Source of the DNA: an uncultured Methylomirabilota bacterium
GTDB taxonomy: Bacteria; Methylomirabilota; Methylomirabilia; CAVQYV01
Length of the DNA: 64,000 nucleotides
NCBI GenBank assembly: GCA_963718295.1
Contig: CAVQYV010000005.1
Location: 25,933 to 89,932, forward strand
Direction: 5' to 3'
Shown: one piece after another, positions 7,588 through 37,066 of the stretch
Numbering within the stretch: position 1 is the stretch's first letter
Layout: each line of letters starts with the position of its first letter
Notes under the pieces: model-generated
The model's input: only the letters and a program-made list of their open reading frames with translations
What the model was told of the DNA's origin: nothing
The model's database searches: none
Program-made: the position numbers and the translations under genes

Positions 7588-7596
7588 ATGGAAGAT

Positions 7597-10006: not shown

Positions 10007-10192
10007 TCACGCAGGTAGAAATACCAGCAGACTGATCAGGGCGCCCACACCCAAGGCAATCAGGAGGATGAGAGCCAGTGAACCCTGAAAGGTCCAGGTC
10101 ATGAAGGTGATGGTGGTTGGAATCCCGTTCTGCAGCGCAAAAACGATGGCCAGAGCGGCAACGAGCAGGGCGAAGATCAAGGACACTTGCAT
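10007..10192 (-). CDS. Small membrane protein with a LapA-like domain (DUF1049), ~61 aa.
   Basis: Internal start MQVSLIFALLVAALAIVFALQNGIPTTITFMTWTFQGSLALILLIALGVGALISLLVF. Two TM helices typical of LapA_dom. The longer upstream ORF extension is low-complexity. Confidence 0.45.
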   Translation of the reverse strand: MQVSLIFALLVAALAIVFALQNGIPTTITFMTWTFQGSLALILLIALGVGALISLLVFLPA

Positions 10193-10334
10193 GGAAGAGC
10201 TCCTTTCGTGAATGCTGAGAGAAGCTGAATGAGATTGGGCGGATCGTGCATGATCCTTCATACACCCATGGCCAGCCCGAGGGCCGACCCGACTCAGTGG
10301 CGTTGCCAGGGACGACTTCGGCTTCAAGGATCGG

Positions 10335-10976
10335 TTAAGGGGCGCTCCCTTTTTGGAAGTTCATGGTGAATGCGAAACACGTTCCAAAGGTCTCGTGCAG
10401 TCTGAACCCAGCCTCCTCCGCCATCCGACAAACCACACTCCTCCTCTGGTAGTGCGGATCGGGAAAGACCTCGGTGACGGATAGAATCCCTCCATCCTTC
10501 AGTGCTCCGTAAATCTTTTGTAAGGCCTGGCCTGGGTCGAGGATCTCACCCAGCACAGTCACCAGAAAAGCCCGATCGTAAGCGCTCTCCTTCAGTTCGC
10601 TTTGCCCCACATCGGCTACCTTTAACTCGACATTCTTGATTCCGAGGGTGGCAGTGCGCTCTCTCAATCGCTGCACCATTTTCTCCTGAAGGTCGATGGC
10701 CACAACCTTCCCCGCGGGGCCGACGCGGGCGGCGGCTGGCAAGGTCAGTCTCCCCGGACCCGCCCCCACATCGAGCACTTTCATGCCCGGCTCAAGGCGT
10801 GCTCGATCCAACAGGACCTCAGCACCCGCAACTGCTTTCACATATGGATTCTCCAATAGTGGAGCTAACCAGGTGGGGCAGGGCATAGCTCGGCGCTTTG
10901 ATGCGGCGCGCCAGGCCAAGCCACCGATGATGGCCGCCAGCAGCAGAATCAGGAGAAGGACAAAAAGACTGCTCAT
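10335..10976 (-). CDS. Membrane-anchored class I SAM-dependent methyltransferase.
   Basis: N-terminal TM helix. Motifs VLDVGAGPGRLT and LKDGGIL (Methyltransf_11/25-like). Confidence 0.7.
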   Translation of the reverse strand: MSSLFVLLLILLLAAIIGGLAWRAASKRRAMPCPTWLAPLLENPYVKAVAGAEVLLDRARLEPGMKVLDVGAGPGRLTLPAAARVGPAGKVVAIDLQEKMVQRLRERTATLGIKNVELKVADVGQSELKESAYDRAFLVTVLGEILDPGQALQKIYGALKDGGILSVTEVFPDPHYQRRSVVCRMAEEAGFRLHETFGTCFAFTMNFQKGSAP

Positions 10977-11325
10977 TGCCTATCCTTGCTTGATCCTCCG
11001 GATCTTATTTAGCCGAAGGGCCCATGGGGGTCAAGGAAAAATTGAAAAACGCTGCATGGATTGAAGTCCGGAATCAGCGCCCCACACCAATCGCATATAT
11101 ATAGGAGTCGTAAAGGAATTGACAACCAAGATCGGACAGAGTAAAACCAGATCCAGCAACCCGCCAAAGTGGCAAGAAGCTGGCCTTTGACCGGCCCATG
11201 CCCTGCAAGCTCCGCATGTAAGGGCGGAGTCAAAGGGTCATAATACGATATGGAATGAGACTGCCTTTTCGGGAAGCCTCGCCGGTAAGGGCGCAGAGCC
11301 TCACTATGCTAAGGAGGAAGAAACC

Positions 11326-19845: not shown

Positions 19846-20720
19846 ATGCTTCGAGACACCGGGAATATCTTGAAAGTGGGGTATCTGCTGTTGCCCATAT
19901 GCTTCTGGCTGGTCCTGCCTGCCTTGGTGCAGGCCCAGGGCCAATATGACGGGGCCTACGGGAGTGGCGCGAATCCTTTCATCCTGGCCACCGGCAGCCC
20001 GGGGGAATTGGGACTGCTGAAGGCGCTGGGAGAGGCCTACGCCACGAAGGAGAATGCTACGCTCCTCTGGAAGAAGGCGGGCTCGGGGGAAGCCCTGAAA
20101 CTGCTGAAAGAAAAAAGGTGGACGCCATCATGGTCCACGATCCTGATGGGGAGAAGAAGGCCATTGCGGAGGGATGGGCGGTGGGGCGCACCCTGATCGG
20201 ATCCAACGAGTTCTTCATCGTGGGTCCGGTCGGCGACCCTGCTGGCATCAGCCAGGCCAAGTCTGCCGCACAGGTCTACCAGCGAATTGCAGCAAGTCGT
20301 TCCAAATTCTTCTCCCGAGGGGATCATTCGGGAACCCACAAGAAGGAATTGGCGATCTGGAAGAAGGCGGGGATCGAACCCCAAGGTGAGTGGTACCTAA
20401 TTGCGGGCGGATTTATGAGGGCAACCCTGAAACGAGCCAATGATGAACAAGGATATTTCATGACCGATAGCAGCACCTGGATCATGGAAAAGGGCAATTT
20501 GCCCGGCCTGAAGGTCCTGTTCAGGGGAGACAAGTTCTTGGTGAACACCTATCACGCCCTCTGCCAGCCGCCAAAGGCGACTCCGGGCGCTCCATGGGCT
20601 GCTGAATTCATTGAGTTCGTGGCCTCAGCGGATGGGCAGGAGATCATCCGCACTTACGGGAAGGAGGACTTCAAAGAGGCACTTTACAACGACGCCGTCT
20701 ATGCCAAGCAATACGAATGA
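19846..20720 (+). pseudogene. tupA: Tungstate ABC transporter substrate-binding protein TupA (copy 1). A frameshift sits in an A6 run near 20112-20117.
   Basis: Two ORFs, 19831-20196 and 20118-20720, together align over the full length with the downstream tupA paralog (LLKALGEAY...GSGEALKL / VDAIMVHDPD...). Signal peptide present. Confidence 0.65.
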
Positions 20721-20739
20721 TGAGATGAAGGAGATCAAG

Positions 20740-21588
20740 ATGAGAACTCACCAATGGAGATTTATTCTCCTCGCGGTTCTTTCGTTGTTGCTGGTCTTCT
20801 CTCTTCCGGCCTTTGCCCAGGAGAGATTAAAGCTCGCGACCACGACCAGCACGGAAAATACCGGGTTACTAAAGGCCCTGCTTCCCCCATTTGAAGAGAA
20901 GAATCATTGTAAGGTGGATGTAATCGCCGTGGGATCTGGGCAATCCATCAAGCTGGGCGAACAGGGAGACGTGGATGTCGTCCTGGCTCATGCCCCGGAT
21001 CTGGAAGAGAAATTCATGAAGGACGGCTTCGGGGTGAATCGCCGCTATGTCATGTATAATGACTTCATCATTGTCGGTCCCCCGGAGGATCCGGCGCAGA
21101 TCAAAGGCCTGAAAGAGGCCAAGGTGGCCTTCAAGAGGATCGCCGACACCCAGTCTTCCTTCATCTCCCGGGGAGACAAATCGGGGACCCATGTCAAGGA
21201 GCTCGCGATTTGGAAGGCCGCAGGGATCAAGGTGGAAGGCATGAAGGGGAAATGGTATCTGGAGGCGGGCAAGGGAATGGGAGAGGTCTTGAATATGGCC
21301 CATGAGAAAAAGGCCTATACCCTTGCCGATCGAGGGACCTACCTCGCCTATCAGGATAAGACCAGCTCGGTCATCCTATGTGAGGGAGACCCGATGCTCT
21401 TCAATCCCTATCACATCATGGCGGTGAACCCGGCCAAGTTCCCCCATGTGAAATTTGAATTGGCCACCAAGCTGGTCGAATGGGTCACCTCCCCCGCGGG
21501 ACAGAAGATCATTCGAGAGTTCAAGGACAAGAAGGGAAATCCTCTATTCGTCCCCACCGCCGAGGTTAAAGGGACAGGCACCCATTGA
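20740..21588 (+). CDS. tupA: Tungstate ABC transporter substrate-binding protein TupA (copy 2, intact).
   Basis: AGGAG RBS 6 nt upstream. Signal peptide. TupA-like motifs TTTSTENTGLL, IAVGSGQSIKLGEQGDVDVVLAH, YNDFIIVGP. Confidence 0.8.
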   Translation: MRTHQWRFILLAVLSLLLVFSLPAFAQERLKLATTTSTENTGLLKALLPPFEEKNHCKVDVIAVGSGQSIKLGEQGDVDVVLAHAPDLEEKFMKDGFGVNRRYVMYNDFIIVGPPEDPAQIKGLKEAKVAFKRIADTQSSFISRGDKSGTHVKELAIWKAAGIKVEGMKGKWYLEAGKGMGEVLNMAHEKKAYTLADRGTYLAYQDKTSSVILCEGDPMLFNPYHIMAVNPAKFPHVKFELATKLVEWVTSPAGQKIIREFKDKKGNPLFVPTAEVKGTGTH

Positions 21589-22043
21589 TCGCATAGTGCC
21601 CCCCAATCCCCTGGCTGGTGGGCGAGGTCAAGGGGCGCGGCACAAGTAGACCCTCTATCGCCTCGGGAGAAGCCCCGTCCCGGGGCAGGGGGCTTAATTG
21701 TCAAGGTAGTTCAGCCCTGCCCTTCACCTCCGAGGGCGGGCCGCCTTTCCGCCTGTACTCTATTCTGCCTTGAAGGATCACCCCGAGTATCGGCTGGTAT
21801 TCGGGGTGATCCCCTATCCTCCCGACACCTCTATTAATAGGATCTTTATGTTCATTATGTTTATGTCCATTCTCTATGCTCTCTCATTCACCTCGTCAGA
21901 GCCCAAGCAGTTGCCCGCCCCACGAAAAGGACTTCCTTGGGAAGAGATTATGATGTAATATGCAAGGAAGAGTATATCCGCTGCTTAGTGCCATATCTCA
22001 AATGGCGTAACATCCATTTCTGCCTCCCGCGGAGAATCAGAGC

Positions 22044-22772
22044 ATGCAATTCTACATCGGCTTTGATGACACAGATACCGTCGATTCCGACCGTGGTACG
22101 GGAAAATTGGCTCGCTGGTTTGAGGGCCAACTGCCTCAGGCCTGCCGCATGTGGGGTGTCGTTCGCCAACAACTCTTGATGGATGATTCCATTCCCTACA
22201 CCTCTCACAATAGCTCGGCCTGTGTCGTCGTGGAAGCCCCCAACATGGACATCATGAATGAGTTGCTTGCCAGGGCGATCGATCATATTGAGCGGCATTC
22301 CTTGCCGGGGAGCGATCCGGGGTTGTGCTTGAGCCATGAAGGCCATCCCTCATTGTCTGAATTGATCCACTTTGGACGAGCGTGCGCCACCAGGGTGGTT
22401 ACCCAAAAAGATGCCCTTCGAGCCGCTAACGGGGTTCATCTCTCGGGCCATGGGGGTACCAATGACGGCATCATAGGGGCTGCTGCGGCCGTCGGTCTAA
22501 CGGCCTACGGATGGGGTGGCAGATTCATTGAGTTCGGAAAATTGCGGGGTTTTCCTGAGCAGGTCTATGTATCAGATCTGGAAGGGGCGGGGATCGCGGT
22601 GGTCTCCATGGATCGGGACGCCCGAGTTCCGGGTCCGGAGGATGTGGTCAAGACCAATGGCTGGCTGCGCCCCCGGCTTTGGGGAGGGAGCCCGGGATTG
22701 CCGGTGACATCCAGAGGTGAAAACCTTTGGGAGACCTTGGGAGAGAAGAAAAGGAAGGAAAAGGAAACATAG
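22044..22772 (+). CDS. Conserved hypothetical protein, 242 aa (N-terminal IGFDDTD motif and a Gly-rich GHGGTNDGIIGAAAAVG segment). Family not recognized.
   Basis: Long ORF in operon position between tupA and the MoSto-like gene. No identifiable domain from the sequence alone. Confidence 0.5.
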   Translation: MQFYIGFDDTDTVDSDRGTGKLARWFEGQLPQACRMWGVVRQQLLMDDSIPYTSHNSSACVVVEAPNMDIMNELLARAIDHIERHSLPGSDPGLCLSHEGHPSLSELIHFGRACATRVVTQKDALRAANGVHLSGHGGTNDGIIGAAAAVGLTAYGWGGRFIEFGKLRGFPEQVYVSDLEGAGIAVVSMDRDARVPGPEDVVKTNGWLRPRLWGGSPGLPVTSRGENLWETLGEKKRKEKET

Positions 22773-22783
22773 GAGGAATTGAA

Positions 22784-23011
22784 ATGGCTGGGAAGATCTT
22801 TTATCGAGAGAGAGGAAAGGTGGGCGAGGGGGAGAAGAAGCCGCGGTTCAAGTTAGTGGCCGTGGCAGATGTCAATCTAAAGGTCTATGGAAAGCACCTT
22901 CGCAGAAGCGAGCTCGAGCAGATCGCAAAGGGTGTCGGCGCTGATTTGATACTGCTCTCTGGCGGCGAAGGGAAATACGAAAAAGAGGAAGAGGTGGAGG
23001 TCGCGGACTGA
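22784..23011 (+). CDS. Small hypothetical protein, 75 aa.
   Basis: Strong AGGAGG RBS 4 nt upstream of the ATG. Sequence MAGKIFYRERGKVGEGEKKPRFKLVAVADVNLKVYGKHL. Family not recognized. Confidence 0.4.
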   Translation: MAGKIFYRERGKVGEGEKKPRFKLVAVADVNLKVYGKHLRRSELEQIAKGVGADLILLSGGEGKYEKEEEVEVAD

Positions 23012-23080
23012 GGTCAAGCAGCCTCTTGCGGCTGTTGGCCCTTCCTTACAACCCGTGAGATCCGAATAGGAGTCCATTCG

Positions 23081-23911
23081 ATGGCTTTAGTGCGCGAACG
23101 CGACGGGCGCCGCCTGCATGTCAAAAGCAAGTTGATGGGAGAGAGTCTGGTCAGCAAATCATTCGTTGAGGGGTTAGAAATAGCCCCTCAACAGCGTCTT
23201 TTCCCGGATGTGAATATCCTCAAGGTAGGAGGGCAATCCATTTGTGACCGCGGGGTGAAGGCGGTCCCCGATGTGATTCAAGAGATCGTTGCCAATAAAG
23301 GGGAGCACAAGATGCTGGTGACCACCGGGGGTGGGACGCGGAGCCGCCACATCTATTCCATCGGGCTGGAGCTGGGCATGCCCACCGGGATCATTGCCAA
23401 ATTTGGAAGTTCGGTCTCGGAACAGAACGCCCTCCTCATCAGCACGCTCCTCTCCCCCTGGGGAGGAATCAAGATCGGCCACGACGAGATCGTCAAGCTC
23501 CCCACTTACTTTGCCCAGGGCTGTATTCCGGTCACCCACGGCATGCCTCCCTACGACTTTTTTGCCATTCCGCCCGAAAAGGGACGGATCCCCGTCCATC
23601 GAACCGATGTGGGCACATTGCTCTTGGCCGATCTGATCGGTGCCAGAAGCTGCATCTTCATAAAGGACGAGAAGGGACTTTACACGGACGATCCCAAAAA
23701 GAACCCCAAAGTGGAATTCATCGCTGAGATTGGGGCCAAGGAGCTTCTGCGCAGAGGTCTGGACGATCTGATCATCGAACGGCCCTGCCTGGAGATCCTT
23801 CAGAATAGCCAGGTAATCACCCGGATTTACATCATCAACGGTCTCGAGAAAGGGAATATCACCCGAGCCCTCCAGGGCGAAAATGTAGGGACCATCATTT
23901 ACAAAGAATAG
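23081..23911 (+). CDS. Amino-acid-kinase-family protein resembling the molybdenum/tungsten storage protein subunits MosA/MosB (UMP-kinase fold).
   Basis: Motifs LKVGGQSICDRG, VTTGGGTRSRHIYSIG, GSSVSEQNA, and C-terminal NGLEKGNITRALQGENVGTII. It is ~276 aa, the same size as MoSto subunits. AGGAG RBS. It is embedded between tupA and tupBC. Confidence 0.65.
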   Translation: MALVRERDGRRLHVKSKLMGESLVSKSFVEGLEIAPQQRLFPDVNILKVGGQSICDRGVKAVPDVIQEIVANKGEHKMLVTTGGGTRSRHIYSIGLELGMPTGIIAKFGSSVSEQNALLISTLLSPWGGIKIGHDEIVKLPTYFAQGCIPVTHGMPPYDFFAIPPEKGRIPVHRTDVGTLLLADLIGARSCIFIKDEKGLYTDDPKKNPKVEFIAEIGAKELLRRGLDDLIIERPCLEILQNSQVITRIYIINGLEKGNITRALQGENVGTIIYKE

Positions 23912-24092
23912 TGGGCGACCCGAACCATTTCCTCTAAAGGCCTTGGGTCCATGAGGAATGGTCGATAGGGTATTGTGGGAAACGACAATGCCTCCCGTGT
24001 TTGGAAAGGGTGAAGACGTGCTGAGTAGAATGCCAGTGCCTGATCCAACGAGGCCACTGGCATTTGTTTCTTGCCCCAACTGAGGAATACAG

Positions 24093-24782
24093 GTGGACTT
24101 CATCATAGAGGCTATCGTTACGTCGTTTCGACTCATCATCACCTTGAATCCTGAGGTGTTTGAGGTGGTCTACTTTACTCTCAAAGTATCCTTCTGGGGG
24201 ACCCTGCTCTCGACGCTCTTCGGGGTTCCCATCGGGTTCCTCATAGGGATCAGGGAATTCCCGGGGAAAGGGATGGTGCGCACCATCCTCAACACCCTCA
24301 TGGCGCTTCCCACTGTGGTGGTAGGCCTCACGGTATATGCTTTCATCTCCCGACAGGGGCCGTTGGGACAATGGGGGCTTCTCTTCAGCCCCAAGGCGGT
24401 CATCATTGGCCAGTGGGTGTTGGCTGCTCCATTGATTACCGCCCTGACTCTATCCGCCACCCAGTCCGTTGATCCGCGGGTTGCCCTTTCAGCCCAGACC
24501 CTGGGGGCCAGCCGCAGTCAAGAGGCAATCGCGGTCCTCAAAGAAGCCAAGTTTGCCCTTATGGCTGCCATAACGGCGGGATTCGGCCGAGTCATTGCGG
24601 AAGTGGGGGCTGCGATGATGTTGGGCGGCAACATCCGCGGTTATACCCGAACCATGACCACGGCCATCGCCCTGGAATCCAGCAAGGGGGAATTTGGCTT
24701 TGGTTTGGCCTTGGGCCTTATCCTGATGGCTCTGGCCTTAGCCATCAACTTCTTCTTCACCTATCTTCAGGGGAGGAAGTGA
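24093..24782 (+). CDS. tupB: Tungstate ABC transporter permease TupB.
   Basis: GTG start with a GAGGAA RBS. Multiple TM helices and the ABC permease EAA-like region (AIALESSKGEFGFGLALG). Confidence 0.8.
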   Translation: MDFIIEAIVTSFRLIITLNPEVFEVVYFTLKVSFWGTLLSTLFGVPIGFLIGIREFPGKGMVRTILNTLMALPTVVVGLTVYAFISRQGPLGQWGLLFSPKAVIIGQWVLAAPLITALTLSATQSVDPRVALSAQTLGASRSQEAIAVLKEAKFALMAAITAGFGRVIAEVGAAMMLGGNIRGYTRTMTTAIALESSKGEFGFGLALGLILMALALAINFFFTYLQGRK

Positions 24783-25799
24783 ATGGTCTCGAATTCTTCC
24801 GGCGGTTTTGAACTTGAAGTCCACCAAATCAAGCACCTCTATAATGATAGAGCCGCACTGGATATCGCTGAGCTTTCCTTCCAGAAGGGAAAGATCTATG
24901 GTTTAGCGGGATCCAATGGGGCAGGCAAGAGCACCCTGATGCTCATTCTCAGCCTCCTTCTCAAGCCAAGCTCGGGCCGTGTCCTTTTCCGGGGGGTGGA
25001 GGTCACCGATGGAAATCGGAGGGATCTGAGGGGGCGGATCAGTATGCTTCTCCAGGATCCCCTCCTCTTCCGCAATACGGTCGCCAGGAACGTGGAGTAC
25101 GGCCTGAGGATTCGGCATATCGCGAGAACGGAGAGGAAGAAAAGGGTCATGAAGAGTTTGGAAATGTTGGGGTTGGAAGATTTCGCCGACCGAAAGGCGA
25201 GGGAGCTCTCTGGAGGGGAGGCCCAGAGGGTCGCCATCGCCCGCGCCCTGGCGATCCAACCGGAAATCCTTCTTCTCGACGAGCTTACCGCCAATGTGGA
25301 TGAGGGCAATGTCAAGATTGTGGAGGAGATCGTCCGATCCTTGAGTAGGGAATCGGGCGCCACCGTGATCTTTTCGACCCATGACAAAGATCAGGCCCAC
25401 CGACTGGCCGATGAGACGATCATCCTCTTGGAAGGAAGGATCACTCCCTTTTCCCCGGAGAACATCTTCAAAGGGAAGACTATCCGGGATGGAGAAGGGA
25501 CCTGGTTCGACACGGGCAGGATCAGGGTCTTCCTGCCCAATGGAGAAGAGGCCAGGGCCATCTCTATAAGCCCCGAGGAAATCGTGGTTTCTCTGTCCCC
25601 GTTCAACTCCAGTGCCCAAAACCGGGTGGAAGGCACAATTGAGAGTATGGTCGTCGACGGGGACGGCGTGAGGCTCTTGATAAATGCCCCGGAGCAGTTC
25701 CACGTGCTCATCACCAAGAAATCCTTGTGCGAGTTGAACCTCAATGTGGGGATGCGGGTTTATCTCACCTTCAAGAGCACCGCAGTAAAGGTATTCTGA
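24783..25799 (+). CDS. tupC: Tungstate ABC transporter ATP-binding protein TupC with a C-terminal TOBE/Mop molybdate-binding domain.
   Basis: Walker A GSNGAGKST. Signature LSGGEAQRV. Walker B LLLDE. The C-terminal ~110 aa have a TOBE-like fold (RVEGTIESMVVDGDGVRLLI...). The start overlaps the tupB stop. Confidence 0.85.
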   Translation: MVSNSSGGFELEVHQIKHLYNDRAALDIAELSFQKGKIYGLAGSNGAGKSTLMLILSLLLKPSSGRVLFRGVEVTDGNRRDLRGRISMLLQDPLLFRNTVARNVEYGLRIRHIARTERKKRVMKSLEMLGLEDFADRKARELSGGEAQRVAIARALAIQPEILLLDELTANVDEGNVKIVEEIVRSLSRESGATVIFSTHDKDQAHRLADETIILLEGRITPFSPENIFKGKTIRDGEGTWFDTGRIRVFLPNGEEARAISISPEEIVVSLSPFNSSAQNRVEGTIESMVVDGDGVRLLINAPEQFHVLITKKSLCELNLNVGMRVYLTFKSTAVKVF

Positions 25800-25929: not shown

Positions 25930-26844
25930 GTGCCCGACTTTAAGATTCATCCTCTGGATTTGCATTTCAATTACTGGCCGGAATCCATCGCCTCCTTTCT
26001 GGTGATCGGGCCGGAAGGCCCGGTGCTCGTGGAAACGGGCCCTGGCTCGACCCTCCCAACGCTCTTGGCCGATCTGGCCCGGCATCATGTGTCGCCCAGT
26101 GATGTGCGCCATGTCCTGGTGACCCATATCCATCTCGATCACGCGGGTGCGTCTGGCTGGTGGGCACAGCAGGGCGCCACCGTTCATGTCCATCGCTTCG
26201 GCGCGCAACACCTGATCGATCCCTCCAAGCTTCTTTCCAGCGCCCAACGCATCTATGGAGATATGACGGACCGCCTGTGGGGAGGGATCATCCCGGTTCC
26301 CCCTGATCGCGTTCACCCCCTGCAGGATGGCGATCCGATTCAAGCCGGCGGCCTGACCTTCGTGGCCCTTGACACCCCGGGCCATGCGCGCCACCACATG
26401 ACCTATGGCCTCGGTGATGTGGCCTTTACCGGCGATATGGCTGGGGTCCGTCTTCCTGGACGGGCACATATCCAGGTGCCGACCGTCCCTCCCGAATTTG
26501 ATCTGGAGGACTGGAAGGCGAGCCTGGAGCGGGTGCGAGCTTGGGGTTTCGCCCGGATCTATCTCACCCATTTTGGCCCGGTGGACGAGGTGGAAGTTCA
26601 CCTTACGACCACGGCTGCATTGCTCGCCGAATACGCCGAACGGGTTCGACAGGAGATGGTTCGGGGAGCTACCCGGGGAGAGATCATCCAGCAGGTTGTG
26701 GAATGGGAAGCGGACAACCAGAACCGAGAGGGCTCTTGCGCCCAAGGAGAAGCGACCCAAACCGGCTTCGGCTCGATCAGCACCTACGTGGACGGGATCA
26801 TGCGGTACTGGAACAAGCGCCTTGAACTGCCACCTGGCAGGTAA
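25930..26844 (+). CDS. MBL-fold metallo-hydrolase.
   Basis: THIHLDHAG motif. GTG start with an AGGAGGG RBS. Confidence 0.75.
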   Translation: MPDFKIHPLDLHFNYWPESIASFLVIGPEGPVLVETGPGSTLPTLLADLARHHVSPSDVRHVLVTHIHLDHAGASGWWAQQGATVHVHRFGAQHLIDPSKLLSSAQRIYGDMTDRLWGGIIPVPPDRVHPLQDGDPIQAGGLTFVALDTPGHARHHMTYGLGDVAFTGDMAGVRLPGRAHIQVPTVPPEFDLEDWKASLERVRAWGFARIYLTHFGPVDEVEVHLTTTAALLAEYAERVRQEMVRGATRGEIIQQVVEWEADNQNREGSCAQGEATQTGFGSISTYVDGIMRYWNKRLELPPGR

Positions 26845-26873: not shown

Positions 26874-28164
26874 ATGGCTATCGTCCGCCCCTTTAGGGGC
26901 CTTCGCTTTAACCCAAAGAAGATTGCCGATCTCGCCTCGGTCATGTCTTTGCCCTATGACGTCCTGACCGATAGAGATCGGGAGGAGCTCTATCAGGCCC
27001 ACCCCTGCAATATCATCCGCATCATCTGGGGAAAGGATCTCCCGGGAGATGGACCCCAGGAGAACAAGTATCTCCGGGCGGGCCGCCTCCTCAAGGAATG
27101 GGAGGCAGAAGAGATCCTGATCCAGGAGGTGCGCGAATCCTTCTATCTCTACGCCCAGGACTTCCCGATGGAAAAAGAGATGAAATCGCGCCAAGGGATC
27201 ATCGCCCGGGTCAAACTGGGAAACAGAGACTCGGATGCCATTCTGGGGCACGAGAATACCTTTCTGGAACAACGGACCGACCGCCTCGATCTGATCCGTG
27301 CTACCGCGGCGAATCTCGACCCCATTTTCGCCCTGTATGAGGGGAAAGGCACCAGCCTGGAGGCGGGCATGAAGGAAGAAACAGGGCGATCTCCGCTCCT
27401 CGATATTCGAGATCGATGGGGCGTGCGGCAGCGCCTCTGGGCCATCCAGGACACGGACCAACACCGCCTCATCATGCAGGAGATGGCACAACGGCGATTA
27501 TTCATTGCAGACGGGCATCACCGCTTTGACGCGGCCCTCCAATATCGCCGGGAGAGGATGGCGGGAGACAAGGGAGGGCCCAAGATAGACCCCGGATATC
27601 ACTATACCCTGATGACCCTGGTCGCCATGGAGGATCCTGGTCTGATCGTCCTGCCCTACCACCGACTCCTCCGTGAAGTCCGGGGCTGGGATCTCCAGAA
27701 ATTCCTGCCCCAGGCGCGAGGCGTTTTTTCCGTAGACGGAAGTGGCACTTCCCTCCCAAGGAGAGGAAAGGGAAGCCTTTGTGCGCCAGCAACTGGAAAA
27801 GGAGGATCATCCGGCGCATCGTTTCGCCCTGTATGCGGGTGGAGATTCTCTATTTCTCCTCACCCGGACCCGCTCGGAAGCCTCTCCCCAGTTGGACGTG
27901 GCCATTTTGGAAGAGGTGATCCTGCAAGGACTCTTAGGGCTTCAGGGTCCCGATAAAGAAGGGAAAATCAATTACACTCACGATATGAAGGAGGCGTTGG
28001 GCCAGGTGGAGGGAGGAGCCGCTGATCTGGCCTTTCTTCTCCGGCCCACCTCGCTGGAGGAGATCCAGTACGTCTCCTTGGCGGGAGAGAAAATGCCCCA
28101 GAAATCGACCTACTTTTATCCCAAGCTCCTCTCCGGGCTGGTGATCAACCCCTTGGATCCCTGA
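26874..28164 (+). pseudogene. DUF1015-family protein, frameshifted near 27730-27770 (T6 and C-run region).
   Basis: The N-terminal ORF 26874-27956 contains the DUF1015 hallmark IADGHHRFDAA. The ORF 27742-28164 supplies the conserved C-terminus KSTYFYPKLLSGLV in another frame. Confidence 0.6.
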
Positions 28165-28192: not shown

Positions 28193-29233
28193 ATGAACAG
28201 GCGTGAATTCTTGAAGAGTGCTGCCGTGGCCACCTTGATGATGGGTGCAGGCCCTGAGGCCTGGACGAAGTTGGCCCAGGCAAACGAATCACGGAAGGAA
28301 ATCGTCAGCAGAAGCCGGGTGGTGGTGTCCCATCATCCGGAGGCCACCGATTCCGAGGGAAGGATAGACAGGAACACCTTGAGCAGCCTGTTGGGGGAGG
28401 CGGTGAAGGGTTACACGGAGAAGGATGATTTGCGGGATGCCTGGGCTTCCCTGCTGCAGCCCTTCAGCCCTTCGGATATCTTCGGCATCCGGGTCAACTG
28501 TATCGCCGCCAAATGCCCCACGCGTCCGGAAGTGGTCGAGGCCATCGTGGAAGGCCTCAGTCTGATTGGAATCCCCAAAGAGCAGATCATCGTGTGGGAC
28601 CGCACCGGCTGGGAGATGACCAAGGCCGGGTATACCCTGAACCAGGGCGACAAGGGCGTCCAGTATTATGGTCTGGACGCGGAAGGCGTAGGCTTCGATG
28701 AGGGAGCTACGGTTGAGATTCCCAGCGCGGGATTGATTCTGCCCCTGGGAAGGCTCCTTTCCACCATCTGTGATCATATCATCAATGTCCCGGTCATCAA
28801 GGACCATTCCACTTCCGGATCCACCTTCGCCCTGAAGAGCGCCTATGCCTATCTCCCGCTCTACAAAGCGATTCCGAGGAATGACCAATGGGTCAAGGCG
28901 ATGCATTCCCATCGTTGTGATCCTCAGATTGCGGAGTTGAACCTTTGTCCTACCATCCGAAAAAAGAATCGGGTGGTGATCGGCGACGCCCTGTTGGGGG
29001 TTTATGACAAGGGACCCATTGCCCCGGCCAATTGGAGGTCCAACCGCCTGATCATTGGAAAGGATATGGTGGCGACGGACGCCGTTGCATTGGATATTTT
29101 GGATGGAAAAAGGGCTGAGCAGGGCCTGCCTTCCGTCAGGGAAAAGGCCAGCCACATCCATACGGCAGCAAGCTACGGGCTGGGCCAGGATGATCCAGCC
29201 CAGATCGATAAGGTGGAGCTGAACCTGGGTTAG
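28193..29233 (+). CDS. Tat-exported DUF362-domain protein.
   Basis: Twin-arginine signal MNRREFLKSAAVATLMMGAG. DUF362-like core (VKDHSTSGSTFALKS, DAVALD). Confidence 0.7.
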   Translation: MNRREFLKSAAVATLMMGAGPEAWTKLAQANESRKEIVSRSRVVVSHHPEATDSEGRIDRNTLSSLLGEAVKGYTEKDDLRDAWASLLQPFSPSDIFGIRVNCIAAKCPTRPEVVEAIVEGLSLIGIPKEQIIVWDRTGWEMTKAGYTLNQGDKGVQYYGLDAEGVGFDEGATVEIPSAGLILPLGRLLSTICDHIINVPVIKDHSTSGSTFALKSAYAYLPLYKAIPRNDQWVKAMHSHRCDPQIAELNLCPTIRKKNRVVIGDALLGVYDKGPIAPANWRSNRLIIGKDMVATDAVALDILDGKRAEQGLPSVREKASHIHTAASYGLGQDDPAQIDKVELNLG

Positions 29234-29325
29234 AGGGTGGGTCCTTGGGCGCCATGGGGATCGCACAATTTGACGCATGAAATGACGGCACGAAATAGCA
29301 ACCAGGGAAGGGAGAGGTAGCAAGT

Positions 29326-30236
29326 ATGGAAAGAAGGGATTTCTTGAAGCTGTTGCTTGGCACCGGAGGAGGATTGCTGCTCCCGCCCATAGACTCCCTA
29401 TGGAGCGGGGAGCAGGTGGGTGCGCAGCCGGACCTGCCGGCTCTGGCGGTGGCCACGGGATCCATCCCCTCCCGAACGACGGTGGCCGCGATCCAGGCAT
29501 TGGGAGGGATGAAGCGATTCATCAAGACCGGTGATGTGGTGGTCGTCAAGCCCAACATCGGATGGGATCGCACCCCGGAGCAGGCTGCAGACACGAATCC
29601 GGAGGTCGTCGCCACGATTGTGGCTTTGTGTTTGGAGGCAGGAGCCAAACAGGTGAAGGTTTTTGACAACTCGGTGAATGATCCGCGGCGAACCTACACC
29701 CGCTCCGGCATCGCGGAGGCAGCCAGAAAAGCGGGAGCTTCAGTCCTATATGTGGATCACAGCAAGTTCAAGGACATGAAGATCCCGGGGGGAGAGGCCT
29801 TGAAGAGCTGGCCCATCTATACCGAGGTAATGGAGGCAGACAAGCTCATCAATGTCCCCATTGGCAAGCAGCACGGTCTCTCCAAACTGACCCTGGGCCT
29901 GAAGAACTGGATGGGTGCCATCGGGGGACGCCGCTCCCTCCTCCACCAGCAGATCGATCTGGCCTTGGCGGATTTAGCCACGGTCATCAAACCCCATCTG
30001 GTCGTCCTGGATGCCATCCGCATCCTGGTGGCCAACGGCCCCCAGGGGGAAGCCCCAAGGATGTTCGCAATACCAATACCATTGTGGCGGGAACGGATCA
30101 GGTGGCCGTCGACTCTTACGGGGCCACGCTTTTCGGCTTGAAGGGCAGCGATCTCGGCTACCTCCGAGAGGCCCAGTCCCGAGGCCTGGGACAACTGGAT
30201 TATAGGCGGCTGTCGATGAAGACCGTGAGCGCCTGA
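29326..30236 (+). pseudogene. Tat-exported DUF362-domain protein (second paralog) with a 1-nt deletion in a G-run near 30055.
   Basis: Twin-arginine signal MERRDFLKLLLGTGGG. After ANGPQG the conserved C-terminus (SPKDVRNTNTIVAGTDQVAVDSYGATLFGLKGSDLGYLREAQSRGLG) continues in the -1 frame to a stop at 30234-30236. Confidence 0.6.
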
Positions 30237-30245
30237 GGACAAGCA

Positions 30246-30854
30246 ATGCAGGCCAGGAGGTCTTCCCTGTTCCTTCTTTCTGCGCTCTCTGCGCTTGGGC
30301 TTATCGCCATGGCTCCGGTGGTCGCAATGGTTACCCCTTTCCCCGCCTATGCCAACCAGATCGAGCCCTCGATCGCCGATTCTCTCCTCTCTGCAACTCC
30401 CAAGGACGGAGAAATGCCGGGCTGGGCTCGCGACGGGGCCCCGGCCCTCTGTTTCGATGAGTCCTCCCTATCCGAATATATCGACGGGGCGGCCCCCTAC
30501 TATCTGGAGCGAGGGGCGGTAGCGGTCCTATTCCAGTATTATGTGGGCCCAACGGCAGGAGAGGACGTAAGGATTGAGATCTATCGGATGAGGGATGATA
30601 CCTCGGCTCGCGGGCTTTTTGGGGACATCGTGAAGGACAGGCCCGCCTCGGAGCAAGACGAGACCAGGGAAATCGGCCAGGGTCGGCATCTGGATCAGGC
30701 TTTATTGGGCGTCTACCTCCTCGAATTCCATGAGGGTCCTTTCTTCGTTCGAGTGGACGGAAAGGGAGAGGGCCTCCAGGCGAAGAGGGCCGTGATCGAA
30801 TTCGGCGGTCGAATCTCCCGCGCCCTCAGAGCCAAAGGGCCGGCCGGCCGATGA
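30246..30854 (+). CDS. Secreted hypothetical protein (signal peptide) in the DUF362 / polyferredoxin operon.
   Basis: Signal peptide MQARRSSLFLLSALSALGLIAMAPVVA. Its stop overlaps the next start (ATGA). Confidence 0.5.
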   Translation: MQARRSSLFLLSALSALGLIAMAPVVAMVTPFPAYANQIEPSIADSLLSATPKDGEMPGWARDGAPALCFDESSLSEYIDGAAPYYLERGAVAVLFQYYVGPTAGEDVRIEIYRMRDDTSARGLFGDIVKDRPASEQDETREIGQGRHLDQALLGVYLLEFHEGPFFVRVDGKGEGLQAKRAVIEFGGRISRALRAKGPAGR

Positions 30855-32455
30855 GGAACCTTCGGCGCATCTCCCAGGCCCTCTTCCTGCTCCTTTTCCT
30901 GCTCCTGGTCCTTGCCACGCGCTACGGGGGCAGCGACGAGATCCGCTATCCGGTAAAGGCCTTCCTGGACTTTGATCCCCTGATTGCCCTCTCCACCTTC
31001 TTGGCCGCCCACTCCTTGCCCCGGGTTCTCCTCTGGTCTCTCACCATCGTGCTGCTGACGGCCCTATTGGGGAGGATATTCTGTGGGTGGATCTGCCCTC
31101 TGGGCACCCTTCATAACCTGATGAGCTCCCTGCGGAAGAAATCCTCCTGGGCGGATCAGGAGAAGCGGCTTCATCGATGGCAATCTCTCAAATACTATCT
31201 CCTCGTGGGCCTGCTCGTCTCCTCCCTCTTCTCGCTCCAACTGGTGGGATTCTTCGACCCCCTTTCTCTGCTGATTCGATCCTTTGCGGTCTTCATCGAC
31301 CCTGTCCTGAATATGATCAGCCAAACCCTCCTGGCCGCCCTCTCCCACACCGGAATTCCCCTCCTGGAGAGGACTGCGGGCACCCTCCAATCCTGGGGAC
31401 TGGATACCTTTTTGGCCTATGAGCCGCCTCACTTTCGCCAGGCCGAGGTTATTGGCATCATCTTCCTGGCCATCCTGCTCCTCAATCTCCTGGGCGCTCG
31501 GTTCTGGTGTGTGACCCTTTGTCCATTGGGCGCCCTCCTGGGCCTTCTCTCTCGATTCAGCCTTCCTCGTCTCCAGATCTCGGAGAATTGCAGGAGCTGC
31601 CGAATCTGCAATCTTCATTGCCAGACAGCGGCGAGTCCTTTTCCCGTCGATTCCTGGAAGAAGTCCGAATGCGTTTATTGCTGGAATTGCCAGAAACTCT
31701 GCCCGGAAAAGGCCGTCCAAATCCATCTCCCGGGGAGAGCCCCGGGGACGAAACAAGCCTCCTCCGGAGTAAACCTGGTAAATCTGGAGCGGAGGCGGCT
31801 CCTGGGATCCGCCCTTGGCGGCGCCCTCTTGGTGCCCCTGCTCAGGAGTGGCCCATTTATCACCCTTCCTTCTCCTCAGCTGATTCGACCCCCCGGCGCC
31901 CTGCCGGAGGAGGAATTTCTGCAGCGCTGCATCCGGTGCGGGGAGTGCATGAAGGTCTGCCCCACTCATGGTCTGCAGCCTACCTTCTTCGAGGGAGGGC
32001 TCCAGGGCCTCTGGACCCCGGTCCTAGTTCCACGCATGGGTTACTGTGAATACTCCTGCACCCTCTGCGGTCAGGTTTGCCCCACCGGGGCCATTCAGCG
32101 GCTCCACCTTACTGAAAAGCAAAAGGTCCGCATCGGTCTGGCCTTCGTCGACCGCGACCGTTGCCTGCCCTACCATCAGGGCATTGCTTGCATCGTCTGC
32201 GAGGAGCTCTGTCCCACCCCTAAGAAGGCCATCTGGCTGGAGGAGGGCTCGGTGAAAGATCGAGTGGGAAGGGTGAAGAGGGTGAAACTGCCCAGGGTGG
32301 ATCTGGATCTTTGCATCGGCTGTGGAATCTGCGAAGAGCGCTGTCCCATCGTGGATTGCCCAGCAATCCGGGTCAGCAGCATCGGCGAATCCCGTTCCTC
32401 CCAGAATCAGCCTTTATTGCCTGGCGGGGGCATGACCCCGATCCCGCAAGATTGA
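30851..32455 (+). CDS. Membrane-bound polyferredoxin of the NapH/MauN/NosR-C-terminal type, with multiple 4Fe-4S ferredoxin motifs.
   Basis: TM helices carrying FCGWICPLG and WCVTLCPLG motifs. Four CxxCxxCxxxCP clusters (CIRCGECMKVCP, CTLCGQVCP, CIVCEELCP, CIGCGICEERCP). Confidence 0.8.
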   Translation: MRNLRRISQALFLLLFLLLVLATRYGGSDEIRYPVKAFLDFDPLIALSTFLAAHSLPRVLLWSLTIVLLTALLGRIFCGWICPLGTLHNLMSSLRKKSSWADQEKRLHRWQSLKYYLLVGLLVSSLFSLQLVGFFDPLSLLIRSFAVFIDPVLNMISQTLLAALSHTGIPLLERTAGTLQSWGLDTFLAYEPPHFRQAEVIGIIFLAILLLNLLGARFWCVTLCPLGALLGLLSRFSLPRLQISENCRSCRICNLHCQTAASPFPVDSWKKSECVYCWNCQKLCPEKAVQIHLPGRAPGTKQASSGVNLVNLERRRLLGSALGGALLVPLLRSGPFITLPSPQLIRPPGALPEEEFLQRCIRCGECMKVCPTHGLQPTFFEGGLQGLWTPVLVPRMGYCEYSCTLCGQVCPTGAIQRLHLTEKQKVRIGLAFVDRDRCLPYHQGIACIVCEELCPTPKKAIWLEEGSVKDRVGRVKRVKLPRVDLDLCIGCGICEERCPIVDCPAIRVSSIGESRSSQNQPLLPGGGMTPIPQD

Positions 32456-32572
32456 GTCCGCAAGATTGAGATTGACCCTCAAGAGGCAATTGTGGTAAGG
32501 AGCAAAAGCGCGGGGCATGTAACGGCGACGGAATGCCCCGGTCGAAATCGAATCGGAAAGGAGGTGAGATAG

Positions 32573-32818
32573 ATGCCGGTCAAGAAGGCGGAAAGCAAGA
32601 CCAAGAAGGCGGGGACCAAGGTGGCCGCTCCAGCGAAGAAGACTGCCCCAGCAACGAAGAAAGCCTCGAGCCAGAAGAAGGTTGCGGTGGGCGACGGTTT
32701 CGAATGCAAGGTATGTGGGCTGGTCGTGTCGGTAATCGATGATTGTGGATGCGTGGAGGTGTGCGATCTGATCTGCTGCGAGAAGCCCATGAAGCCCAAG
32801 AAGGTGAAGGCCGCTTGA
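32573..32818 (+). CDS. Small (81 aa) protein with a Lys/Ala-rich histone-H1-like N-terminal tail and a C-terminal 7-Cys cluster (CKVCG...DDCGC...C...CC).
   Basis: Strong GGAGGTG RBS. Sequence MPVKKAESKTKKAGTKVAAPAKKTAPATKK...ECKVCGLVVSVIDDCGCVEVCDLICCEKP. Confidence 0.55.
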   Translation: MPVKKAESKTKKAGTKVAAPAKKTAPATKKASSQKKVAVGDGFECKVCGLVVSVIDDCGCVEVCDLICCEKPMKPKKVKAA

Positions 32819-35231: not shown

Positions 35232-36311
35232 TTATTCTGCTTCCGTCATGTCGAGGTGGGCAGGCAGAGGGGCCTCCAGAAAGCCTGAGAGGTTGGAGGT
35301 GGTGAGCACCCCTCCCTCGGAGGTGATGATCAGGCCCGCCATCTCGGGGCGATCCTGAAGCAGGGTCATCCCCCGATCTGGGCCCAGGAGAAAAACGGCC
35401 ACCGAGGGCAGATAATCGTGGCTGAGCCGCGGGGCCAGGATGGTAACCGCCGAACAGCCGGGGGCAGGATATCCAGATCGGGCATCGATGATGTGGTGGT
35501 ATCGCTTTCCATCGATCTGAAAATAGCGCTCATAATCCCCGGAGGTTAGAGAGCAGCCATCCTTGATCCACAGCATTCCGATGAGCTCTCCGCTCCTGCG
35601 GGGTTGTTGGATGCCGATTCGCCAGCCTTTTCCCTCTCTTCCCTCGCCTCTCGCCAGGATATCCCCTCCGATATTGACCAGGTAATTGTCCAGGCCTTGA
35701 TCCTGCAACACTCCTCCGGCCCGAGCTACGGCATGGCCCTTGGCGATCCCCCCCAGGTTGATCCTCATCCCCGGCAGCATCAATTTGACCTCCTGGGTCT
35801 TTCGCATCAGACAGACCTTCCGGTAGTCCACCGAGGACTTGGCCTGAGCCAGCTCCATCGAAGAGGGGAGCCTCCTCTCCTTGGCGCACTTTCCCCAGAG
35901 CTCCCAGAGCGGAGCAAAAGTGATATCGAATGCCCCCTCGGTGAGGCAAGAGATGGTTTGGGCATGATCCAGGAGCCCAAATACCTCAGGTGACACCCTC
36001 ACCTCTTGGCCGGCGGGGGCGGCGTTGATCCGCGAGACCTCGCTATTCGGCCGGTAGTAGCTCATCAGATCCTCGATGCGGCGGATTTCGGAAAAGGCCT
36101 GATCCATCGCCCTTTGAACCTTTGATTCATCCGGATCGATGACCGTGATCTCTACCAGGGTGCCCAAGAGGGACCGGGCTTCCTTGACGATCGCAGCATG
36201 GCAAGGGACAACAAGGCCTAAAGAAATTGCCAGGAGAAGGGTGGCGATCGCACTGGATCGCTTCTGATGGCCTCGAGGCTCACGCAATAGACGCCACATG
36301 GCGGATCTCAA
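35232..36311 (-). CDS. apbE: FAD:protein FMN transferase ApbE (lipoprotein).
   Basis: ApbE family similarity (…GGIAKGHAV…). Lipobox-like LGLVVPC. The start ATG overlaps the stop of the upstream FMN-binding gene (ATGA). Confidence 0.8.
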   Translation of the reverse strand: MRSAMWRLLREPRGHQKRSSAIATLLLAISLGLVVPCHAAIVKEARSLLGTLVEITVIDPDESKVQRAMDQAFSEIRRIEDLMSYYRPNSEVSRINAAPAGQEVRVSPEVFGLLDHAQTISCLTEGAFDITFAPLWELWGKCAKERRLPSSMELAQAKSSVDYRKVCLMRKTQEVKLMLPGMRINLGGIAKGHAVARAGGVLQDQGLDNYLVNIGGDILARGEGREGKGWRIGIQQPRRSGELIGMLWIKDGCSLTSGDYERYFQIDGKRYHHIIDARSGYPAPGCSAVTILAPRLSHDYLPSVAVFLLGPDRGMTLLQDRPEMAGLIITSEGGVLTTSNLSGFLEAPLPAHLDMTEAE

Positions 36312-36862
36312 TTCGTCCCGGCACGCAGTTCCTTCTGGAAGATCCTCATCGCCTCCGCCATGGCACCCATCACCGCCCGCGAAGATACGGTGGCGGAGGT
36401 GATGGCATCGATGTTTCCGGAGGGATCATCCCTCTTGAGGATGAAGGGACCCTTCTTTCCCACGAATTGAGTCATGAATTGCCGCAAAACCCCATCGCCC
36501 GCCAGCGCAGGAGTCTCATTATGGGAGAGCGGGATGGCGCCGGTGATCTTTCCCTCCGAATCGATGCCGGTCATGACCTCCAGAGGGCCGGCGTAACCAA
36601 TCCCCTGGGTTTTGAAGACCCCGCCTATCCGATCGGAGCCGCGGAAGGCCACCCAGTAAGGGGTCCCCATGTATTGGGCTGGCTCGAATCGCTCCGCTTC
36701 CGGCATGACTTGCTTGAGATGCCCTGCATCTTTCTTCCCCTGTTCCTGCTCCGCCGCGAGGGCGCCGGACCCGCATATCATGCCGCCTACCATGCCCAAA
36801 GCCGCCAGGAACAAGACACAGAGCGTCAGAGTTCTCAATGAAAAAAGATGGGTGCCCCTCAT
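36308..36862 (-). CDS. FMN-binding-domain protein (NqrC/RnfG-like FMN_bind). Likely the flavinylation substrate of the adjacent ApbE.
   Basis: Internal start MRGTHLFSLRTLTLCVLFLAALG (signal/TM). The SATVSSRAV motif matches the covalent-FMN threonine context (S/T-x-S/T) of FMN_bind domains. Confidence 0.7.
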   Translation of the reverse strand: MRGTHLFSLRTLTLCVLFLAALGMVGGMICGSGALAAEQEQGKKDAGHLKQVMPEAERFEPAQYMGTPYWVAFRGSDRIGGVFKTQGIGYAGPLEVMTGIDSEGKITGAIPLSHNETPALAGDGVLRQFMTQFVGKKGPFILKRDDPSGNIDAITSATVSSRAVMGAMAEAMRIFQKELRAGTN

Positions 36863-37066
36863 AACGACCTCCTTCGCCTTGAAATGCCAGTGAATATAAT
36901 ACTGAACCTCCTTCGCTTCAAGAAAAATCCCTCTCCTCAGAAAAATCTCTCTCCGCCGTCTTTTTGCCGAATATCCCTTGACCAACTGGAGCGATCCCGA
37001 TAATGATTGGGCCGGATTTCAGAAGGCACTGCGGCAGCCCAAAGGGCAAGAGGAGGAATCGGCTAT

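Follow-up and report, generated by a model that had tools for sequence, protein, structure and literature searches.

A conserved module of a Tat-exported DUF362 protein with a predicted LarA-type fold and a NapH-NapG fusion polyferredoxin, possibly linked to the nickel-pincer cofactor

The 64,000-nucleotide stretch of DNA analyzed here (the window) comes from an uncultured Methylomirabilota bacterium and carries, on the + strand at positions 28193–32818, five same-direction genes separated by short gaps. Two of these genes, encoding a DUF362 protein with a twin-arginine translocation (Tat) signal (DUF362-B) and a membrane polyferredoxin (PFD), form the core of the locus, because their pairing recurs while the other neighbors vary by lineage; taken alone, this two-gene module is very probably a functional unit. 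The arrangement is not a chance juxtaposition, as it recurs in relatives of many phyla. DUF362-B is predicted to adopt a LarA-type fold, and genes for nickel-pincer cofactor biosynthesis adjoin the module in some related loci. The interpretation that we favor, with confidence only somewhat above even, is that DUF362-B works in the periplasm as a catalytic subunit of LarA-like type to which a NapGH-type module is coupled, and that it possibly depends on the nickel-pincer cofactor. The five genes are:

28193–29233, + strand: DUF362-A, 346 aa, starting MNRREFLK with the twin arginines at residues 3–4
29326–30236, + strand: DUF362-B, 303 aa after frame repair, starting MERRDFLK; the unshifted frame spans 29326–30141
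30246–30854, + strand: DUF6599 protein, 202 aa, with an N-terminal signal peptide; Pfam DUF6599 (PF20244) at 37.9 bits, cutoff 27
30851–32455, + strand: PFD, 534 aa; its ATG overlaps the TGA of the DUF6599 gene (ATGA)
32573–32818, + strand: an 81-aa Lys/Ala-rich Cys protein, directly 3′ of the PFD gene

Each DUF362 protein possesses a Tat motif (NRREFLK in DUF362-A and ERRDFLK in DUF362-B) followed by a hydrophobic region; across DUF362-B orthologues the conservation of R3 and R4 is 90% or higher. Against Pfam DUF362 (PF04015, cutoff 24), DUF362-A scored 66.3 bits and DUF362-B scored 157 bits in its truncated and 181 bits in its intact form; DUF362-A also matched the TIGR01409 Tat signal model (22.4 bits, cutoff 16.7). 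A first-pass annotation, made from the letters of this DNA, had described two DUF362 paralogues with twin-arginine signals, a signal-peptide protein and a translationally coupled last gene. The Pfam, Tat-model and motif results agree with that description at the same coordinates, the third product is now identified as a DUF6599 protein, and the coupling is visible as the ATGA overlap. The annotation had also proposed an uncharacterized periplasm-facing complex; the Tat signals and the predicted topology of PFD support such an orientation, and no description of the complex was found in the papers searched on DUF362, on nickel-pincer enzymes and on Sec/Tat polyferredoxins.

Recurrence of the gene pair and architecture of the polyferredoxin

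On the PFD side, a pattern scan based on the PFD alignment, with one genome per GTDB species, yielded 80 loci that were searched with a hidden Markov model (HMM) built from DUF362-B homologues. A DUF362-B orthologue was located immediately upstream of PFD on the same strand, with a gap of ≤300 nt and often with an overlap, in 66 of these 80 loci; it was upstream with one gene between in four and downstream of PFD in two. The HMM detected no DUF362-B in the remaining eight, one of which has no upstream DNA and another of which carries an A-type paralogue only. The second sample consisted of 80 metagenome loci obtained from a scan with the DUF362-B alignment, seeded by a sequence of the L064 type (a locus introduced below). 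Eleven of the 80 were left out of the linkage count, their contigs ending ≤300 nt from the DUF362-B gene, and PFD was present in 62 of the 69 assessable loci, directly downstream in 58. The first-pass annotation had made its proposal depend on a linkage of DUF362 genes to polyferredoxin genes in other genomes, and that linkage is evident from both sides. The genome-derived set comprises 85 loci and, with the metagenome loci, the collection amounts to 165.

The record titles of the PFD loci span about ten phyla. They include Nitrospirota, Thermodesulfobacteriota/Desulfobacterota (Syntrophales, Smithella), Acidobacteriota (including Aminicenantes), Krumholzibacteriia, Glassbacteria, Gemmatimonadota and Ignavibacteriaceae, together with metagenome-assembled genomes (MAGs) labeled as Leptospira, Clostridia and Pseudomonadota. 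Identity to the Nitrospirota homologues is ~60% for DUF362-B and ~53% for PFD. The other neighbors (flagellar genes, ApbE, spermidine synthase, amidase and others) are unrelated between lineages. As candidate partners, amidase, phosphoglycerate mutase, SpoIIE, Lon and deacetylase were rejected, since their recurrence reflects lineage-specific synteny, and an FMN_bind/ApbE pair considered as a split NosR-like partner was rejected as it occurs near PFD only in NC10-like relatives.

PFD itself can be divided into three parts:

30851–31789, + strand: NapH-like part with four transmembrane (TM) helices, two CX3CP motifs and two cytoplasmic Cys4 clusters; Pfam Fer4_5
31790–31843, + strand: twin arginine and fifth TM segment (TMD5), with R314–R316, then L317–L331, then R332
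31874–32455, + strand: NapG/MauM-like, predicted periplasmic domain with four Cys4 clusters

Residues 3–151 matched the NapH/MauN models of NCBIfam (NapH at 88 bits against an equivalog cutoff of 234), in keeping with the first-pass description of a NapH-like last gene, and residues 319–508 matched NapG (112.5 bits, cutoff 269) and MauM/NapG (98.7 bits), both below the equivalog cutoffs. The CX3CP motifs previously noted are indeed present, at C78/C82 and C220/C224, but the Cys clusters number six rather than the four first counted (C247–257, C274–284, C360–370, C399–410, C438–454, and C488–498). All of these Cys motifs and R314–R315 are invariant in an alignment of ten homologues with 53–63% identity. 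The proposal of the first-pass annotation that DUF362 proteins replace NapG is not upheld, because the four-cluster NapG/MauM-like domain is already fused within PFD.

By its sequence, the window polyferredoxin fits the dual Sec/Tat PFD family of NapH-NapG fusions. Tooke et al. (2017, eLife; PMC5449189) described the MLMS-1 polyferredoxin (Q1NSB0) as such a fusion, whose clusters number three on the cytoplasmic and four on the periplasmic side, and reporter fusions to this protein showed that Sec inserts four helices and that Tat translocates TMD5 and the C-terminal domain. The features taken from that paper as diagnostic are a twin arginine directly before a weakly hydrophobic TMD5 and a positive charge after it. 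In the window protein, the maximal Kyte–Doolittle hydropathy is 2.0–2.4 for TM1–4 and only 1.45 for TMD5 (L317–L331). The NapH-like N-terminal part, the twin arginine with a weak TMD5 and the four-cluster NapG-like C-terminal domain are thus shared with Q1NSB0, a likeness drawn from the published architecture, and by this analogy the NapG-like domain is predicted to be periplasmic and Tat-translocated. The same paper reported homologues from Nitrospirae, Chloroflexi, and Euryarchaeota; it concerns membrane insertion only, names no function or partner and makes no mention of DUF362 (PMC5449189).

The NapH-type CX3CP motifs and cytoplasmic clusters, together with the NapG-type, Tat-dependent tetra-cluster ferredoxin, relate PFD to NapGH. 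In E. coli as well as Wolinella succinogenes, NapGH conveys electrons between quinol and the periplasmic nitrate reductase. Unlike NapGH, the window PFD fuses both parts in one polypeptide, its scores of 88–112 bits stay well below cutoffs of 234–269, and the conserved partner within the module is a DUF362 protein; no napA, napB or napC was present in the annotated window neighborhood (20.6–40.7 kb), and no nap genes were recurrent in the 85 genome-derived loci. A comparable layout, in which the gene of a NapH-type polytopic Fe-S protein stands beside that of a Tat-exported catalytic enzyme, is found with NosR/NirI and RdhC/PceC, which support periplasmic N2O reductase or reductive dehalogenases. 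These proteins have an N-terminal FMN-binding domain and no fused NapG-like domain, whereas the window PFD shows the opposite composition. The NosR model scored 46.6 bits on PFD (cutoff 1000) and covered the membrane part only, and the FMN_bind gene of the window is a separate gene on the opposite strand, 3–4 kb away.

Predicted fold of DUF362-B and the nickel-pincer genes

An AlphaFold2 (AF2) model was produced for P0121, an intact 303-aa protein that is 99% identical to the repaired DUF362-B and is encoded by the JGI metagenome contig L089. With 39 homologues the model reached a mean pLDDT of 83.7 and a pTM of 0.83 and was confident outside the signal peptide. A Foldseek search against the PDB returned 19 matches at E ≤ 1e-3, all of which belong to the LarA family (probability 1.00, E 1e-6 to 1e-4, 203–288 aligned columns). 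The matched structures comprised malate racemase (7S91/6D6Z), single-histidine LarA-like proteins (9Q3J/9Q3K), 4NAR, LarA (5HUQ/6C1W/8EZF), 2YJG and 9EIA/9EID; the next matches were generic Rossmann folds with a TM score of ~0.2. On this modeling, DUF362-B is assigned a LarA-type α/β fold. Apart from the fold, the likeness to the LarA superfamily (5HUQ, 6D6Z, 9Q3J) extends to the Pfam clan, CL0471, which unites DUF362 with the LarA N-terminal domain (PMC11770544), and LarA proteins themselves match the Pfam DUF362 HMM (26 bits, E 1e-5, LarA residues 82–245 against profile positions 18–171).

In LarA, K184 serves as the tether of the nickel-pincer nucleotide (NPN) and H200 as the nickel ligand; R75 binds phosphate, and H108 and H174 form the catalytic pair (PMC11770544). 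A profile–profile comparison with hhalign of 173 DUF362 sequences against LarA, whose query sequence had been checked against 5HUQ, gave a weak alignment that paired E170-A171-D172 of DUF362-B with E161-A162-D163 of LarA, H183 with H174 and K193 with K184. The same weak alignment placed the invariant D81-R82-x-P84 loop of DUF362-B next to D72…R75-P76 of LarA. The spacing A-D-x10-H-x9-K is identical in the two proteins, and the next conserved His follows the Lys after 13 residues in DUF362-B and after 15 in LarA. H183, K193 and H207 were conserved in all 43 B-type and in 123–128 of the 130 A-type representatives (≤50% mutual identity). DUF362-B retains one near-invariant Cys, C102, and since there is only this one the protein cannot hold an Fe-S cluster; the ferredoxin role that the first-pass annotation had envisaged for it fails on the same residue count.

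DUF362-B differs from LarA in length (303 versus ~424 aa) and in having a Tat signal and an Fe-S partner gene without a racemase substrate context; as far as the weak alignment goes, it would lack a second catalytic His, as do the single-histidine LarA homologues 9Q3J and 9Q3K. Searches of PDB sequences returned nothing at E ≤ 10, whether the query was the DUF362-B sequence alone or a profile. Comparison by hhalign of three small DUF362 alignments with three LarA sequences gave insignificant local matches, one of which covered AD…H…K, and a LarA homologue search brought in nothing beyond near relatives of LarA and left the profile no deeper. The repaired DUF362-B also gave a weak NCBIfam match (74 bits, cutoff 500) to Npun_F2552, a cyanobacterial DUF362-like family. 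Cyanobacteria are reported to carry larBCE but not larA, and we regard the Npun_F2552 match as a lead for the nickel-pincer hypothesis.

Clustering of the genes neighboring the module identified a recurrent protein of ~270 aa as LarE in six loci (TIGR00268, 158–346 bits, cutoff 150), accompanied by LarB (NF033503) and LarC (TIGR00299/NF052512), all above the NCBIfam equivalog cutoffs. The lar genes adjoin the module in 6 of the 85 genome-derived loci, which are listed here with a further locus that carries a LarA homologue:

L064 (Leptospira-labeled MAG), one strand: DUF362-B 3178–4083, PFD 4100–5689, larE 5686–6498, larB 6500–7180, larC 7119–8006
L055, L043, and L035 (Smithella-type): larB, larE and larC beside an aldo/keto reductase (AKR) with an Fe-S domain (AKR-FeS), DUF6599, DUF362-B and PFD
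L042 and L008: larE downstream of PFD, with no AKR in the DNA available
L075 (Korobacteraceae MAG): a genuine LarA homologue (Lar_N, 194 bits) 2.7 kb after DUF362-B

The genes of L064 overlap or abut in a single-operon layout, and neither LarA nor an AKR is present at that locus. In L075, an MmgE/PrpD-family gene and the LarA homologue occupy 8421–11179, 0.7–2.7 kb downstream of a cluster of PFD, DUF6599, DUF362-A and DUF362-B. By our own rough estimate, which assumes that about one-quarter of genomes have lar genes, a window of 12–16 kb and a genome of ~3.5 Mb, chance co-location would be expected in ~0.2 of the 165 loci, as against the six seen in four independent lineages. About 15% of surveyed genomes carry larBCE without larA (PMC11796402), so that users of the cofactor other than LarA are to be expected. 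One such group, the NPMN-dependent AKRs (NphT, 9YEB), was reported in 2026 by mining larBCE neighborhoods from which LarA-like proteins were deliberately excluded (Semersky et al., 2026, Nat Chem; PMC13524815). NphT represents a second nickel-pincer scaffold, again with a Lys tether and a His nickel ligand, but it is a cytoplasmic TIM barrel for which no Fe-S partner is described; Tat-AKR-FeS proteins in our related loci adjoin the same PFD and DUF6599 genes, and lar genes as well, and no AKR was found in the window. Our searches of papers on DUF362 and on nickel-pincer enzymes revealed no link between DUF362 and the cofactor and none between nickel-pincer enzymes and Tat.

Proposed mechanism and competing explanations

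In the mechanism that we favor, four Sec-inserted helices of PFD would carry the CX3CP motifs and two cytoplasmic [4Fe-4S] sites, and the internal twin arginine with the weak TMD5 would pass the four-cluster NapG-like domain to Tat and hence to the periplasm. DUF362-B, and in this lineage also DUF362-A, would be exported folded by Tat and would dock on the NapG-like domain as its catalytic partners, a placement suggested by the very strongly conserved adjacency. Because of its LarA-like fold with conserved His/Lys/His residues, DUF362-B is, by analogy, better read as occupying the place of NapA, that of a catalytic partner, than as an electron carrier. A pyridinium cofactor, most likely of the NPN type, would be attached to its K193 before the protein leaves the cytoplasm, with H207 as the nickel ligand and H183 as the catalytic base; cytoplasmic loading would explain the Tat export of a protein without an Fe-S site. 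A small periplasmic substrate would then exchange hydride with the cofactor, and the two electrons would travel singly along the six to seven Fe-S clusters in PFD, entering or leaving the quinone pool at the NapH-like domain. They probably run from quinol to the periplasmic enzyme, as the analogy with NapGH, NosR and RdhC suggests. The DUF6599 protein would be an accessory periplasmic protein or lipoprotein.

Several observations weigh against this proposal. The Foldseek TMq values to the LarA family are modest (0.37–0.50), and the hhalign comparison had an E-value of 0.012 and a probability of 3.7%, at which the residue-level alignment is not statistically secure; H207 of DUF362-B lies three columns off H200 of LarA, and no His of DUF362-B occupies the position of H108 in that weak alignment. 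The Lar_N (PF09861) and LarA_C (PF21113) models gave no match to DUF362-B even at E ≤ 10, so that, as judged by sequence, DUF362-B does not count as a LarA homologue narrowly defined, and an HMM of A- and B-type DUF362 proteins against LarA was not significant either. The lar genes are near the module in only 6 of the 165 loci overall, with none in the 64-kb window and none in any of the 80 metagenome loci. In L035, L043 and L055 a Tat-AKR-FeS gene sits between the lar genes and the module, and since NPMN-dependent AKRs are known (PMC13524815) the AKR-FeS could be the cofactor user there. As to direction, the reverse flow, in which the module would be a quinone-reducing periplasmic dehydrogenase, is equally possible.

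Much of this evidence is shared by a rather unlikely but substantial alternative, in which DUF362-B is the catalytic partner of PFD but works with a center other than the nickel-pincer, either a mononuclear metal held by His/Asp/Lys or no cofactor at all, and in which the lar genes serve other enzymes, Tat-AKR-FeS proteins or LarA homologues. The scarcity of lar genes (6/165 loci, none in the window) and the weak alignment to the LarA cofactor residues would be accounted for, as would the facts that three of the six lar loci also hold an NphT-related AKR-FeS (PMC13524815) and that L075 has its own LarA homologue. Set against it are the L064 operon, which joins DUF362-B and PFD to larE, larB and larC without AKR or LarA, and the downstream larE of L042 and L008, where the DNA available contains no AKR. 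The His-x9-Lys spacing, moreover, is that of LarA and is near-universal in two DUF362 subfamilies, and a Tat signal without any other cofactor motif would need another explanation. Every member of the LarA family characterized so far is a racemase or epimerase whose redox cycle is hidden (PMC11770544), and LarA holoenzymes are labile (PMC11796402); DUF362-B might on this precedent be a LarA-like isomerase or racemase without net redox change, its substrate lying in the periplasm or the cell envelope, with PFD serving not as a turnover donor or acceptor but to keep a labile cofactor reduced or reactivated, or having an unrelated function under shared regulation. A-type relatives fused to dockerin, CBM9 or type IX secretion system (T9SS) tails, with no Fe-S partner in the same polypeptide, would suit this explanation. 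We consider it improbable, as the ~90% adjacency in both directions, often with overlapping genes and in about ten phyla, speaks more for a complex of fixed stoichiometry than for repair now and then, and as DUF362 is often found within proteins that also have Fe-S binding domains (Pfam, quoted in PMC5742341).

The original idea, that the DUF362 proteins are periplasmic electron carriers standing in for NapG in a NapGH-like quinol dehydrogenase, took its support from the Tat signals and the adjacent NapH-like gene. It now appears very improbable: PFD already unites a NapG-like domain of four clusters with the NapH-like part, DUF362-B shows no Fe-S motif and but one conserved Cys, and its predicted fold is LarA-like and not ferredoxin-like. 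The integrity of the locus also had to be considered. A 1-nt deletion in a G5 homopolymer (30045–30049, + strand) shifts the frame of DUF362-B, which breaks after codon ~240, the last 63 codons lying in another frame with a stop at 30236; farther upstream, a T6 run (27724–27729) interrupts the DUF1015 gene, which in the L002 relative is whole (420 aa). The presence of two frameshifts in 2.3 kb might signify that the operon is decaying here, with DUF362-B and DUF1015 as true pseudogenes and the module non-functional in this genome. The independent contig L089, which over 141 nt is identical to the window except for G6 instead of G5, confirms the G-run indel reported by the first-pass annotation and encodes an intact protein. 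Both shifts are located in homopolymers, there are no further stops, and the frames past each shift keep full similarity to their homologues, all of which makes decay highly unlikely. Because L089 has G6 and the two homopolymer frameshifts lie so close together, assembly error is, from these sequence comparisons, the more likely explanation.

Returning to the catalytic, possibly nickel-pincer-dependent DUF362-B, a more far-reaching version of this proposal can be put forward tentatively, as a possibility short of probable. DUF362 might be one of the missing non-LarA nickel-pincer families, and DUF362-B the first such enzyme to receive its cofactor in the cytoplasm, to be exported by Tat and to be wired through Fe-S clusters to the quinone pool. 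This would be a respiratory use, with net redox change, of a cofactor that has until now been described only for hidden-redox racemases and for intermolecular hydride shuttling; PFD might elsewhere also serve the Tat-exported nickel-pincer AKR-FeS.

Accessory genes, neighborhood and significance

DUF6599 adjoins the module in 23 sources (the window, its four NC10-like relatives L001–L004, and 18 among the 80 genome loci) and in 10 of the 80 metagenome loci. Within the scanned loci its homologues are almost always beside the module (two are ~4 kb off), and they mostly carry a lipobox or a signal peptide; the L082 homologue scored 124.7 bits in Pfam. The AF2 model of DUF6599, made from a single sequence, had a pLDDT of 39 and was unusable. 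A supposed DUF362-DUF6599 fusion (P0436) was dropped, the DUF6599 match being below the Pfam cutoff and without BLAST support.

DUF362-A retains N102, D136, K203-x-H205, K215, D265 and G274-P275, plus subfamily-specific Cys residues. It accompanies DUF362-B in L002–L004 with the same gene order as in the window, the Acidobacteriota loci L075 and L081 contain the same four genes reordered as PFD, DUF6599, A and B, and an A and B pair was also found in L087 of the Acidobacteriota. The A-type subfamily is large, with 1492 representative clusters matching at E ≤ 1e-3, and appears to be extracytoplasmic in general, since many members bear a fused T9SS sorting domain, FlgD-Ig or dockerin. Several proteins, namely P0362 (1384 aa), P0363 (1071 aa), P0403, P0450, P0474, and P0510, have three to four tandem DUF362 domains or T9SS/FlgD-Ig/dockerin tails. 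Such multi-domain or tailed A-type sequences imply putative DUF362 enzymes located at the cell surface or outside the cell, with no Fe-S partner fused to them; cellulolytic consortia are on record as containing DUF362-CBM9-dockerin proteins (PMC5742341).

An AKR of ~380–465 aa with a C-terminal Fe-S domain was found beside the PFD and DUF6599 genes in ten genome loci. It has its own Tat signal in nine of them, L019 being the exception, and in L070 and L077 it is present while DUF362-B is absent. One of these AKRs matches the NphT structure 9YEB at E 1e-15. The Tat-AKR-FeS positions are:

L035, 2852–4000; L043, 2750–3898; L055, 2786–3934; L070, 5635–6852
L076, 8362–9594; L077, 8326–9543; L082, 7678–8904; also in L072 and L080

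The best named relatives belong to candidate division NC10 (73–76% identity). Upstream of the operon and in the same direction, the following two genes were assigned by Pfam:

25930–26844, + strand: metallo-β-lactamase-fold protein
26874–28164, + strand: DUF1015 gene, with the frameshift described above

Their order is repeated in L002–L004 and is kept only among close relatives; the two genes may be co-transcribed with the operon. A scan for promoters and terminators yielded counts no higher than chance and was uninformative. The 81-aa open reading frame downstream of PFD has a Lys/Ala-rich N-terminal tail and an ECKVCG…CC (CxxC…CC) motif reminiscent of desulforedoxin. A Pfam scan of this frame gave no match, and tblastn showed it to be kept only in the NC10-like loci L001–L004, with 56% identity overall and 79% in the Cys core, so its membership in the module is uncertain. 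Further upstream on the + strand, a solute-binding protein (PBP_like_2, Pfam) heads the region 20611–25799, in which 24093–24782 resembles an ABC permease and 24783–25799 an ABC ATPase, as judged by eye. At 35232–36985 on the − strand, ~3 kb downstream, an ApbE flavin transferase is paired with an FMN_bind lipoprotein resembling RnfG/NosR. The neighbors within 20.6–40.7 kb also include a tRNA-editing domain protein, a thioesterase, a Zn-ADH, a DNA methylase and a photolyase.

As a family, dual Sec/Tat PFDs were already known; what is added here is a new class of putative catalytic partner for a NapGH-type module. To our knowledge, neither the partnership of PFD with a Tat-exported DUF362 protein of predicted LarA-type fold nor the contextual link of this pair to the nickel-pincer genes has been described. 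If the proposal is correct, PFD, which has been studied only for its membrane insertion, would gain a conserved partner and a likely role, and DUF362, a very large domain of unknown function, would gain a hypothesis in which a LarA-like His-x9-Lys…His site is combined with Fe-S electron transfer. The operon of DUF362-B, PFD, larE, larB and larC would nominate an extracytoplasmic user of a cofactor whose AKR users were found only in 2026. Environmentally important lineages with anaerobic or microaerophilic lifestyles, among them NC10, Nitrospirota, Syntrophales and Acidobacteriota, carry the module widely, and an unrecognized quinone-linked periplasmic activity could matter for the energy metabolism of the lineages that carry it.

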